64,000 bases of DNA, from positions 12,462,001 through 12,526,000 of the forward strand of contig OZ024761.1 in NCBI GenBank assembly GCA_964016885.1, in the 5' to 3' direction. This document shows positions 22,422-57,384 of this stretch, piece after piece. A program made the translations under genes and the position numbers. Position 1 is the stretch's first letter. Every line of letters starts with the position of its first letter. The DNA comes from Eledone cirrhosa (taxonomy: Eukaryota). The notes under the pieces were generated by a model. That model made no database searches, was not told the origin of the DNA, and worked only from the letters and a program-made list of their open reading frames with translations.

Positions 22422-22554
22422 AATGAAGGAAATGTTGTAAGGAACCAGATGGACCATAACGCACCAAAGTACTCAATACTTAGGGTAGTAGAGTGGGTGA
22501 TAGGAACGAGTAGGACCCCGACGGCTGAGCTCAAGCCGTTTCGACGGCTAATTC
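22422..22554 (-). mobile_element. TA-embedded family H element, copy A (carries the 3' half of a hammerhead-like motif)
   Basis: AAGGAAATGT.GTAAGGAACCAG..GTACTCAATACTTAGG family; the reverse complement contains GTC-GAAA-CGGCT-TGAGCTC-AGCCG-TC-GGGG. Confidence 0.75.
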
Positions 22555-22659
22555 ATATATATATGTTTATATATATATATATATATATATATATATAAAC
22601 ATATATATGTATATGTATGAATGTATACGTATGTATGTATTACAAAGACCAAAATCCAA

Positions 22660-23090
22660 AGAGGATTCGAGAATCATTCCAGGTAGAGCTGCTATTTCTC
22701 CGAATTCAGAGATCACAGCTCCGATACTATGGACATGTGGTTAGAATGTCTGAGGAAAGAATGCGTAGCTCAGAGATCAGAGAGTCATTCCAGGTAGAGC
22801 TGCTACTTCTCCGAATTGAGAGATCACAGCTCCGATACTACAGGCATGTGGTTAGAGTGTCTCAGGAAAGAATCGTTGGACCGATTTACAGGCAAAACCA
22901 ACCGGTAGGAGACCCAGGGGTAGACCCAAAGCAAGATGGTTGGATAACATCCACGAGCTTGACTGGTCACGCTTGGGGATCCAGCTGGATCAGTTAGAGA
23001 TGGTTGCTTCTGACAGGACCCGTTGGAGGGAGGGTTTGCAGACTCTGCCCCCCCCACGACTCTCTCAGGAAAAAGTGGGTGAAGAACTCC
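22660..23090 (+). mobile_element. RTE 3' fragment with a ~111-bp internal duplication
   Basis: LR(I)(Q/E)RSQLRYY(G/R)HVVR occurs twice; same family as 10075. Confidence 0.8.
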
Positions 23091-23520
23091 CTAATCTAAA
23101 TGTGTGTGTGTGTGTGTGTGTGTGTGTGTGTGTGTAGGACTGTGTTGATATACAAGATGTCCCCCAAAAATGTATACACACTTTGATTACCTGTACAGAC
23201 AATATTTATTAGAATGCTGTTGAAGTTTGTATACATTTTTGGGGGAAAAAAAACAAAAAAACAACATATTTAAGTCTCTAATCTAAATATGTGTGTGCGT
23301 GTGTGTGTGTATGTGCATGTGTGTGTATGTGTGTGTGTATGTGTATGTGTGTGTGAGAGCTACGAAGGGAGGGGGTAGAGGAGCAGTGACTGGATGTTGG
23401 GATGGAATTGGGGATAGAGAGTTGCCACAGTTTTTGACATGTTTAGGATGGTCTTCCATCTATTTAACTTGCCGGAGGGCGAGAGGGGGGGGGGGGACGG
23501 TGGTGGTGGTGGTGGTGGTT

Positions 23521-25657
23521 TAGTACGACATGGTATGGTAAGGTATGACATGGTATGGTAAGGTATGACGTTGTATGGTAAGGTATAACATGGTATGGTA
23601 AGGTACGGTAAGGTATGACATGGTATGGTAAGGTATGACATGGTATGGTAAGGTATGACATGGTATGGTAAGGTATGACGTGGTAAGGTAAGGTATGACA
23701 TGGTATGGTAAGGTATGACGTGGTATGGTATGGTAAGGTATGACATGGTATGGTAAGGTACGACATGGTATGGTAAGGTATGACGTGGTATGGTAAGGTA
23801 TGGCATGGTATGGTAAGGTAAGGTATGACATGGTATGGTAAGGTATGACGTGGTATGGTAAGGTATGACATGGTATGGTATGGTAAGGTACGACATGGTA
23901 TGGTAAGGTATGACATGGTATGGTAAGGTATGCCATGGTATGGTATGGTAAGGTACGACATGGTATGGTAAGGTATGACATGGTATGGTAAGGTATGCCA
24001 TGGTATGGTATGGTAAGGTACGACATGGTATGGTAAGGTATGACATAGTATGGTAAGGTAAGGTATGACATGGTATGGTAAGGTATGACATGGTATGGTA
24101 AGGTATGACATGGTATGGTAAGGTACGACATGGTATGGTAAGGTATGACGTGGTATGGTAAGGTATGACATGGTATGGTAAGGTAAGGTATGACATGGTA
24201 TGGTAAGGTATGACGTGGTATGGTAAGGTATGACATGGTATGGTATGGTAAGGTACGACATGGTATGGTAAGGTATGACATGGTATGGTAAGGTATGCCA
24301 TGGTATGGTATGGTAAGGTACGACATGGTATGGTAAGGTATGACATAGTATGGTAAGGTAAGGTATGACATGGTATGGTAAGGTATGACATGGTATGGTA
24401 AGGTAAGGTATGACATGGTATGGTAAGGTATGACATGGTATGGTAAGGTAAGGTATGACATGGTATGGTAAGGTATGACATAGTATGGTAAGGTAAGGTA
24501 TGACATGGTATGGTAAGGTATGACATGGTATGGTAAGGTAAGGTATGACATGGTATGGTAAGGTATGACATAGTATGGTAAGGTATGACATGGTATGGTA
24601 AGGTAAGGTATGACATGGTATGGTAAGGTATGACATAGTATGGTAAGGTATGACATGGTATGGTAAGGTAAGGTATGACATGGTATGGTAAGGTAAGGTA
24701 TGACGTGGTATGGTAAGGTAAGGTATGACATGGTATGGTAAGGTAAGGTATGACGTGGTATGGTAAGGTAAGGTATGACATGGTATGGTAAGGTAAGGTA
24801 TGACATGGTATGGTAAGGTAAGGTATGACGTGGTATGGTAAGGTAAGGTATGACATGGTATGGTAAGGTAAGGTATGACGTGGTATGGTAAGGTATGACA
24901 TGGTATGGTAAGGTAAGGTATGACATGGTATGGTAAGGTAAGGTATGACGTGGTATGGTAAGGTAAGGTATGACATGGTATGGTAAGGTAAGGTATGACA
25001 TGGTATGGTAAGGTAAGGTATGACATGGTATGGTAAGGTAAGGTATGACGTGGTATGGTAAGGTATGACATAGTATGGTAAGGTAAGGTATGACATGGTA
25101 TGGTAAGGTATGACATGGTATGGTAAGGTAAGGTATGACATGGTATGGTAAGGTATGACATGGTATGGTAAGGTAAGGTATGACATGGTATGGTAAGGTA
25201 TGACATAGTATGGTAAGGTATGACATGGTATGGTAAGGTATGACATGGTATGGTAAGGTATGACATAGTATGGTAAGGTAAGGTATGACATGGTATGGTA
25301 AGGTATGACATGGTATGGTAAGGTAAGGTATGACATGGTATGGTAAGGTATGACATGGTATGGTAAGGTAAGGTATGACATGGTATGGTAAGGTATGACA
25401 TAGTATGGTAAGGTAAGGTATGACATGGTATGGTAAGGTAAGGTATGACATGGTATGGTAAGGTATGACATAGTATGGTAAGGTATGACATGGTATGGTA
25501 AGGTAAGGTATGACATGGTATGGTAAGGTATGACATAGTATGGTAAGGTATGACATGGTATGGTAAGGTAAGGTATGACATGATATGGTAAGGTATGACA
25601 TGGTATGGTAAGGTAAGGTATGACGTGGTATGGTATGACGTGGTATGACATGGTATG
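23521..25657. repeat. 2.1-kb pentamer-based satellite (TGGTA/AGGTA/TGACA)
   Basis: 5-bp register with 20- and 25-bp higher-order units. Confidence 0.95.
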
Positions 25658-25945
25658 GACCTGTAACTCCTGAGAGAGTCATAGAGGCGCCATATGGACA
25701 TATTTCTAGGGCATGGCGAAGCCCATCCCCTCTCCAGGCCTGAATACAGTAAATTTCTTCCAGAGAAGGATAGAGAGAGAGAGAGAGAGAGAGAGAAAGG
25801 AAGTGAGAAAGATACAGACGAAGAATCAACCCCAGTATCTGACTGGTACTCTTTTATCGACCATTAATGGATTCGAGCAGAGAGAGAAAATGAATTCCAT
25901 TCTTATCCGACACTCTAACAACTCTACCAAGTCATCGCATAACAT
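25658..25945 (-). mobile_element. SINE family 1-related element with a longer 3' tail ending in ACCAT repeats
   Basis: Homologous to 30950-31215; contains the reverse complement of GTCGATAAAAGAGTACCAGT. Confidence 0.65.
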
Positions 25946-54916: not shown

Positions 54917-55032
54917 ATCCCACTCTCTGAGCATCGAAAACACTACCCGAAAAGGAGAACAGGCCAACATCATCGGATGCTTCTGAAGCCGCAGGTTTTT
55001 CTTTTTCAGAGTTTCCCTATATATGTATATAT

Positions 55033-55366
55033 ATCATTTCATCATTCATTTCATTTCACGTCCACTTTTTCCCTGCTTGCAAGGGTGGGACGGGAACTGA
55101 TTCTGGCTTGATTTCTACAGCTGGATGCCCTTCCTAACACCAACCTCATTTACAGTGCTTTTTTGCCGTGGCACCTCCACGACCACTTTGCAGTGGAATG
55201 ATAGGGACCCCAGTCCCTATCATCTCATTTCTACAGCTGAGTAAACTGGAGCAATGTGAAATAAAGTGTCTTGCTCAAGGAAACAACACATCACCCGGTC
55301 TGAGAATTGAACTCACAGCCTTTCGATTGCAAGGCCAATGCTCTAACCATTAAGCCATGTGCCTCC
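55033..55366 (-). mobile_element. SINE family 2 copy
   Basis: Reverse complement of 12129-12473. Confidence 0.9.
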
Positions 55367-55377
55367 ATGTATGTATG

Positions 55378-55968
55378 CATATATATATATATATATATAT
55401 ATATATATATATATATATATATATATATATATATATATATATATATATATATATATATATATATATATATATATATATAAATATATATAAATATATATAT
55501 ATATATATATATATATATATATAAATATATATATATATAAATATATATATATATATATATATATATATATAAATATATATATATATATATATATAAATAT
55601 ATATATATATATATATAAATATATATATATATATATATAAATATATATATATATATATATATATATAAATATATATATATATATATATATATATAAATAT
55701 ATATATATATAAATATATATATATATATATAAATATATATATATATATATAAATATATATATATATATATATATATATAAATATATATATATAATATATA
55801 TATATATATATATATATATATATATATATATATAAATATATATATATATAATATATATATATATATATATATATATATATATATATATATATATATATAT
55901 ATATATATATATATATGTATATATATATATATATATATATATGTATATATATATATATATATATATAT
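55378..55968. repeat. ~590-bp (TA)n microsatellite
   Basis: Visible simple repeat. Confidence 0.95.
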
Positions 55969-57160
55969 AGTGGGGAATTTTCTTAACACACTAAATTATA
56001 CAGTTTTGTGTGTGATGTGTACGAAATCAAATATGTGCGTGAGTGTGTATGTGTGTCTGTATCTGTATATCTGTATATGTGTCTATGTGAGTATGTGTGT
56101 CTGAATGTGAATGTATGCGTGTGTCTGTATGTGTATGTATGCGTGTGTCTGTATGTGTATGTATGCGTGTGTCTGTATGTGTATGTATGCGTGTGTCTGT
56201 ATGTGTATGTATGCGTGTGTCTGTATGTGTATGTGTGTGTGTCTAGGTTATCTTTTGGCCTGAACATTTCTGTGATAATGAGAAGCAGGAGAGAAAACTT
56301 TAAAAAAACAACAACAAAAATAGGGAGCCAGGATACAGAACAGAGTGGATGAGGATTTATAGTAGGGATGTAGGGGGTAGCTGGGTATATCTTGGGTGGG
56401 TGTGGGTTAGTTAGATCTGGGTGGGGGGATAGCTGGTTATATTTGGGGGGACAGGGGATGTAAGGGGTAGTTATATCTTGGGTGGGGGTAGCTGGTTATA
56501 TCTGGGGGGGGAGTTAGTTATATCGGGGAGGGGGGGGGGGTAGTTATATATGGATGGGGACGGGAGATGTAGGGGGTAGTTATATATATTAGCTGGTTAT
56601 ATCTGGGTGGCGGTGGGGTTGGTGGAATTGGTGGTGTAGTTATATTTTGATGGAGGAGTGGGGGTGGGGTAGTTAGTTATATCTTGGTGGCAGTGGTGGT
56701 GGTGGTGGTGACTAGTTGGTGGTGGTGGTGGTGGCTAGTTGGTGGTGGTGGTGGTGGTGGTGGCTAGTTGGTGGTGGTGGTAGTGGTGGTGGTGGTGATG
56801 GTGGTAGTGGTGGTGGTGGTGGTGGTGGTGGTGGCTAGTTGGTGGTGGTAGTGGTGGCTAGTTGGTGGTGGTGGTAGTGGTGGTGGTGGTGGCTAGTTGT
56901 TGTTGGTGGTGGTGGTGGTGGCGGTGGTGGTGGTGGTGGCGGTGGTGGTGGTAGTTAGTTACTATCTGGGTTAGTTATGTAGAAAGGAAGCCATGAAAAA
57001 ATAAATAAAGAAAACAGACTTATGCCAACATTGATCTTCAGATTTCTTTAACTTCCCCCTCCCCCCTCTCTCTCTAACACACACACATACATGTACATAC
57101 ATACACACACACACACATACATACAGATATACATGGTCCTACTACAATATATATATATAT

Positions 57161-57384
57161 AACGAAGGAGGTGTGGTAAGGAACCAGATGGACCATAACG
57201 CACCAGAGTACTTAACACTTAAGGTAGTAGAGTGGGTAATAGGAAAAAGTTTAACCCCGACGGCAGAGCTCAAGCTGTTTCGACGGCCATTTCTGGACTA
57301 AATTAGAATTTTCAAAAATGTTAGTTTAGTCCAGAAATGGCCGTCGAAACAGCTTGAGCGCTGCCGTCGGGGTTAAACTTTTTT
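57161..57384. mobile_element. Family H copy F (fold-back retaining the whole central hairpin)
   Basis: Palindrome centred on the loop at about 57304-57325. Confidence 0.8.

Follow-up and report, generated by a model that had tools for sequence, protein, structure and literature searches.

Six Copies in the Window

The window analyzed here is a stretch of 64,000 nucleotides of Eledone cirrhosa DNA (contig OZ024761.1, positions 12,462,001 to 12,526,000), in which an initial annotation had reported six copies of one inverted-repeat family anchored in (TA)n, starting at positions 22422, 29118, 42405, 52377, 53684 and 57161. All six, designated A to F, were found at these positions, (TA)n anchoring was seen for each of them, and a BLAST search of the window with the six copies yielded no seventh. 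The copies consist of the final 77–151 bases of a Penelope-like element (PLE). As judged from sequence comparison, the points at which such stubs stop likely record the RNA start and the ribozyme cut of the element.

Element positions are numbered backwards from −1, the final base of the conserved tail, with negative numbers running back into the element, whose sense corresponds to the minus strand of the window. The arm ends of the six copies were read by hand. Copy A is a single tailed arm (−1 to −132; 22423..22554, minus strand) with (TA)n adjoining it on either side. Copy B is composed of a tailed arm (−1 to −134; 29119..29252, minus strand) and a tail-less inverted arm from A(−138) to −78 (29253..29313, plus strand), the G preceding A(−138) being common to both arms. 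Copy C, without ribozyme sequence, combines a tailed arm reaching −77 with about 13 bases of tail-less arm, to about −90 (42406..42496, minus strand). In copy D, the tailed arm spans −1 to −113 (52378..52490, minus strand) and the tail-less inverted arm −135 to −78 (52491..52548, plus strand). The corresponding arms of copy E extend from −1 to −85 (53685..53769, minus strand) and from A(−138) to −78 (53770..53830, plus strand). Copy F carries a tailed arm from −1 to about −151 (57162..57312, minus strand), a 12-base filler between the arms, recognized by comparison with long copies (57313..57324), and a tail-less inverted arm from −141 to about −80 (57325..57386, plus strand).

The motif GTC-GAAAC-GGC-loop-GCC-GTC-GGGG, or a near variant, was present in at least one arm of A, B, D, E and F, and was absent from C. 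The 21-bp hairpin described for copy F exists as an inverted pair (57282-57302 / 57325-57345), its second member being the first 21 bases of the tail-less arm, but it is not stem II of a hammerhead. Rather, it marks the middle of the inverted repeat that the two arms form, where a single stem II strand faces an inverted copy of itself; none of the six copies has the true 5' stem II strand CGGCUAUUU. As had been noted, CCCC-CTGANGA is absent from the whole window; the variant core of the UUGANAA type also gave no match there with one mismatch allowed. Being stubs without the core, the copies are predicted to be unable to cut alone, in agreement with the view that they are catalytically dead.

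Other repeats of the window do contain canonical hammerhead-like motifs. A minimal hammerhead with CTGATGAA, a short stem II and GAAACGTT lies at 42264 (plus strand) in a repeat whose TA-run end adjoins copy C. Five further CUGANGA motifs of this kind, from other repeat families, were located at 63360, 48269, 28469 and 27302 (minus strand) and at 48055 (plus strand).

Identity and Abundance of the Element

Genome counts were made in the assembly G000, and locus samples were drawn from its contigs C1–C3. A 25-base tail pattern produced 40,871 exact matches, compared with 0 for the reversed control, so that the family is far beyond chance and comprises at least 40,871 tail copies. Random 10-kb stretches totalling 200 kb contained about six insertions, which was too few for mapping.

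Long copies continue through a pyrimidine-rich 3' untranslated region (UTR) into an open reading frame (ORF). At one locus (L232) the ORF is intact, with 719 amino acids, and YRDD of a reverse transcriptase (RT) and VIY..YIG of a GIY-YIG domain were read in the translation. This is the single ORF with RT and C-terminal GIY-YIG that characterizes endonuclease-positive (EN+) PLEs. A second ORF copy was 99% identical to that of L232, and 2054 homologues were detected at E<=1e-20. Pfam returned no family for any of the three proteins submitted, and a PDB sequence search gave nothing significant.

Members of the Hydra clade are described as carrying DKT, RWK, CxCx5C, and CxxC and CxH around conserved E and N, with (TA)n as target (PMC8557442). 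The 719-aa ORF contains SDKTG, RWR (a variant of RWK), CNCPDRSIC, CNLCSEE, LLN and CKH. TA runs followed nearly all of 211 sampled tails, picked by the tail pattern alone and all from contig C1. By its protein motifs and its (TA)n target, the element is assigned to the Hydra clade.

The arrangement of the copies is likewise that of EN+ PLEs, with partial tandems (pseudo-long terminal repeats, pLTRs), an inverted 5'-truncated copy and a 77-base tail on one side only. Tandem units had periods of 3.1–3.5 kb, and their sequence continues beyond the tail into the next unit; the tail end is therefore an internal point of the RNA. One tandem array (L320–L323, G000:C1:91476614-91487265) holds at least four full units with a period of 3542 bases, and a similar array lies at C1:437200345-437210962.

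The Hammerhead Ribozyme

The reading of the motif as the 3' half of a hammerhead was borne out, and in long copies the type I hammerhead is complete. Its native form consists of ACCCC-UUGANAA-G, stem II CGGCUAUUU/AAWUAGCCG, GAAA, a 5-bp stem III with a GAGCUC palindrome, GUC and GGGGU. The core is thus UUGANAA (U3-A8), not CUGANGA. The core pattern had 5,744 matches in the genome; among the first 100 listed, about three quarters were UUGANAA, about one quarter CUGANAA, and none CUGANGA. U3-A8 is a known natural covariation, found in PLEs as well (PMC4209133; PMC3088659). The mismatched C3-A8 cores (about one quarter) came mostly from one subfamily, still abundant, in which 10 of 14 whole copies had them.

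The canonical CUGANGA hammerhead seen in the Hydra clade was thus not found among these first 100 core matches; canonical motifs are reported for the clade as an observation and not as its definition (PMC8557442). A search for CTGANGA upstream of the motif gave 33 matches, and the 30 that were read were junctions or other repeats. With UUGANAA as the native core, the test proposed in the initial annotation, according to which lack of a CUGANGA core would indicate a simple palindromic miniature inverted-repeat transposable element (MITE), fails both ways; the family belongs to the PLEs. In an older subfamily both stem II strands are altered (CAGCUAGAU/AUCUAGCUG), and it was found with a pattern leaving the 5' strand free.

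A three-way junction with the core, G10.1-C11.1, GAAA and NUH was identified in 88 whole copies. In an alignment of 27 copies, picked for diversity among the collected loci, 89% of stem cells were paired, compared with 25–49% in slid controls. Three stem II pairs were altered on both sides, with few events behind them, and no two-sided changes were seen in stems I and III of these copies. The junction formed unaided in two of four folds; folding energy was unremarkable, with z-scores of only +0.1 to −0.9, and Rfam reported no hammerhead match for the window or for one long copy. Self-cleavage after N17 is predicted, its indirect sign being the accumulation of copy ends at G1.1 described below.

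At three loci (L031, L044, L050), arms of the family met the hammerhead region of a different PLE-like family in reversed orientation, each time at a similar point.

Two-Armed Layout

For the analysis of arms, five members of the tail sample were removed (four with ORF-start sequence downstream, one cut by the locus edge), leaving 206 terminal tailed arms. An adjacent inverted arm was present in 164 of them; it started at −76..−80 in 143 of these 164 and carried the tail as well in seven. Arms have two fixed starts, −1 and −78, each at TA or TAT. Between the arms of 62 pairs, 350 of 368 subfamily-allele sites agreed (54% expected). An apparent A/G difference between arms was rejected as an artefact of ranking matches by identity to copy B. 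A rare tail variant was common to both tails of one partial tandem and to both arms of one inverted pair (L372, L368), from which a single source for each pair follows.

Junctions between arms were diverse, with 59 different ones among 71, and fillers or local duplications were frequent. End-joining repair leaves fillers and local duplications of this kind.

The layout of an inverted pLTR plus tail has already been published (PMC8557442; PMC3846280). In a Poseidon PLE, two internal RT start sites bound the tail and both target strands are extended (PMC11167929); the layout of the present family matches this two-site, two-strand priming in vitro.

End Points of the Arms

The claim that junctions cluster in the stem II region was substantiated genome-wide by mapping of arm ends, each with an uncertainty of a few bases, and breakpoints were not uniform. 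In the tail sample, ends per base amounted to 0.09–0.12 at −130..−145, compared with 0.010–0.018 at the cut site and proximal stem II and 0.002–0.006 in most other zones. Among the 241 arms reaching −130, 214 ended by −145 (103/123 tailed and 111/118 tail-less), with the mode at −138.

Arms joined straight to (TA)n were tallied by hand among the first 100 matches listed, which represented 47 distinct insertions, or 43 after four fold-back or tail joins had been dropped. Seventeen ended at −138/−139, 10 at −137, 12 at −132..−136 and four at −140/−141; none went further (none at −142..−145).

A non-native G often preceded A(−138), and some insertions had the extra G on both arms. After removal of Gs explained by the partner arm, the base at −139 was G in 10 cases and A in two, in contrast to 6 G and 28 A at −133..−135 (Fisher p 9e-5). 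The first 100 antisense matches listed, also tallied by hand, had 90 C and 10 T, and 35 of the C were unexplained by the partner. An untemplated G is an accepted mark of a copied cap in L1 and SVA (PMC3287187), and an internal promoter is known for Penelope (PMC2377424).

In 75 of 88 whole ribozymes, the word at −140..−135 was TTAGTC, TCAGTC, TTAGTT or TCAGTA. Because of the sharp stop, the extra G, this word and the internal promoter of Penelope, the main stop is probably an RNA 5' end, and probably a capped start.

A second stop was observed at the predicted cut. The first 100 matches listed for this site, tallied by hand, contained 54 distinct insertions, 27 of them direct joins to TA-rich flank. 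Twelve of the 27 started exactly at G1.1 (−97; p about 1e-8), seven at −95/−96 and seven at −103..−106; one was ambiguous, and none lay at −98 or −100..−102. In the tail sample, ends at −95..−98 were seen in 8 of 163 arms. A further sample, of pLTRs followed by the ORF, included 58 copies (2 of 60 loci removed), and 4 of them ended at −95..−99. The peak at the predicted scissile bond likely reflects a ribozyme-cleaved template.

Proposed Origin of the Copies

The explanation that we consider fairly probable is that the copies are 5'-truncated, head-to-head PLE insertions, formed as RT primes on both strands of a cut (TA)n and runs off the RNA 5' end. The GIY-YIG domain would cut (TA)n, and each cut strand would prime at one of two fixed RNA sites, −1 or −78. 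Synthesis of both cDNAs would continue over 138 or 60 bases until the RNA 5' end is reached, and the two short products (about 138 and 60 bases) would be trimmed and joined by end-joining repair. A(−138) would be the capped transcription start, situated within stem II. RNA starting there would lack the core, and its 5' end would therefore stay uncut; ends at −97 would correspond to the ribozyme cut. For long copies, the source may be circles, a template jump, or RNA with more upstream sequence.

Several observations weigh against this explanation. In the ORF-followed sample, 33 of 58 pLTRs passed the core, and of those reaching −122 only 7 of 41 ended by −155, as did about 5 of 22 in a second ORF-followed set, compared with 125 of 142 terminal arms. 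Position −138 is therefore not the sole RNA 5' end. The subfamily with mostly C3-A8 cores supplied 8 of 20 clear −97 ends, and since a mismatched core also shows this end, the −97 peak could be a structural stop. In the direct (TA)n joins, TA microhomology at −138/−139 inflates that bin, C and G followed −138 equally (three each), and G or GC followed −137 four times. The search pattern for the antisense extra base did not admit G. The TTAGTC word bears a weak likeness to an initiator, and no DPE was found by eye.

The core occurred in both arms of 22 of 76 core-bearing insertions (about 3–4% expected). Since long copies pass the wall and long arms pair with each other, templates may fall into classes, namely RNA with its 5' end at −138, RNA cleaved at −97, and templates that are longer, circular or the product of a jump. 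A processive enzyme state could also explain the long copies and the pairing of long arms, which keeps alive an unlikely alternative with two-sided priming on intact RNA, in which stalling of RT would take place on the distal 3' strand of stem II or where the RNA makes a protein or tertiary contact there. Ends spanning −122..−145 do cover the 3' strand and loop of stem II, the rate drops beyond the loop, and the older subfamily stops, by eye, at the same place. However, RT passes the strongest helix (−122..−131) and stops in a weak AU-rich part, the folding z-scores do not go below −0.9, neither the one-base wall nor the extra G is predicted by stalling, and about 80% of ORF-bearing copies pass. 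Fold-back of a strand with self-priming at stem II, improbable in our estimate, is the published reading of junction palindromes in rotifer PLEs (Arkhipova 2013, PMC3846280) and agrees with the near-perfect palindromic junctions at L290 and L251 and with both arms being of the same subfamily. On this reading a single loop should be retained and the same junction should recur, in conflict with the diversity of junctions seen; moreover, native −132..−140 sequence is present in both arms, the tail-less arm was longer in 44 of 157 pairs and shorter in 23, the extra G stands on both arms in some insertions (L140 and two further pairs), and the fixed −78 end is left unexplained. A recount of variants between arms (3 shared, 75 unshared) counted for neither reading. 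The initial annotation had proposed stalling or self-priming at stem II; both fit less well than run-off at the RNA 5' end because of the sharp −138 wall, the extra G and the tail-less arms that are often longer than the tailed ones.

Collapse of long palindromic insertions to a tolerated arm length after insertion is very improbable. Repair is indicated by the fillers, local duplications and deletions at microhomologies found at junctions, but non-palindromic single arms joined straight to (TA)n have the same wall, and short arms end at −138..−153 even with a partner of 1–2 kb (L115, L250, L061). The least credible origin, with a negligible chance, is a simple palindromic MITE of DNA-transposon type. 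Short inverted repeats sitting in TA runs would suit it, yet their sequence is continuous with the RT-GIY-YIG ORF, the 77 extra bases of tail stand on one arm only and their centres are copy-specific; this candidate was refuted by the ORF-linked long copies. A non-LTR retrozyme, a non-coding tandem monomer with a whole hammerhead, was also rejected, as no core is present in the stubs and an RT is encoded in the repeat unit.

Run-off at the RNA 5' end also admits a more specific version, which we put forward only tentatively and hold to be rather doubtful. The stubs would be a PLE counterpart of strong-stop DNA, with the start of the mRNA inside the ribozyme; most events would run off at the cap and be integrated as two-armed stubs, and long or tandem copies would arise by a jump across the 41-base repeat (−138..−98). 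The 5' end would be uncuttable, and the whole 3' ribozyme would remove downstream priming sites, leaving priming near the 5' end. In LTR retroelements, priming near the RNA 5' end gives the short run-off cDNA known as minus-strand strong-stop DNA. As there, a terminal repeat (−138..−98) could permit a jump, which is hypothetical here; priming here would differ in being from the target, on both strands and without a tRNA primer.

Comparison with Known Systems

The layout, U3-A8 cores and internal RT starts are already published. With the EN+ PLEs of the Hydra clade (Craig et al. 2021, PMC8557442), the family shares the C-terminal GIY-YIG, DKT, the CxCx5C linker, CxxC and CxH, as well as the (TA)n target, the 3' hammerhead and the inverted 5'-truncated copy. 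It differs in its 3.1–3.5 kb unit, long 3' UTR and tail of 77 bases instead of 30–40, in long stems II and III, and in tens of thousands of stubs stopping at one site. Its UUGANAA core contrasts with CUGANGA in every Hydra row of File S2 part 2 of that source.

The PAc Poseidon PLE studied in vitro (Frangieh et al. 2024, PMC11167929) is alike in having two internal RT starts bounding the tail, extension of both strands, an AT-rich target and the use of mostly uncut RNA. No RNA-seq ends at the ribozyme cut were found in that study, whereas the genomic ends here accumulate at the predicted cut and, 41 bases upstream of it, at a second site. PLE hammerheads (Cervera and de la Pena 2014, PMC4209133; Perreault 2011, PMC3088659) share the U3-A8 core, the G10.1-C11.1 pair, the loop III palindrome and paired motifs on opposite strands. 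Those described here differ in a stem III of 5 bp, a stem II of about 10 bp, a loop region of 33–34 bases and about one quarter of C3-A8 cores. Direct and inverted pLTRs, an optional tail, palindromes at inverted junctions and an Inr-like word in the pLTR are common to the Penelope elements of Adineta vaga (Arkhipova et al. 2013, PMC3846280), for which self-priming was the reading; the present data favour two cDNAs ending at the RNA 5' end.

In the literature searched, with most subscription papers and supplements outside its coverage, no PLE copies were found that end at a cap-marked site within the ribozyme or at the scissile bond. Inverted arms, tails, partial tandems and in vivo hammerhead cutting are described as open questions for PLEs (PMC8557442; PMC11167929). 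With an intact ORF at hand, the tens of thousands of copies that stop at either of two predicted RNA ends offer testable predictions at the level of single bases. If the strong-stop-like origin were true, the genome would hold a fossil map, resolved to single bases, of where transcription starts and of ribozyme cleavage in vivo. A search restricted to CUGANGA misses the ribozyme of a family as abundant as this one, and PLE stubs of this kind can pass for MITEs.

Other Repeats in the Window

Two further features of the window were recorded. A tandem array with a 10/20-base period begins at about 23400 and gave 188 overlapping 300-base matches. A dispersed 638-base repeat pair lies in inverted orientation at 18529-19166 and 55155-55792, its members being 89% complementary.

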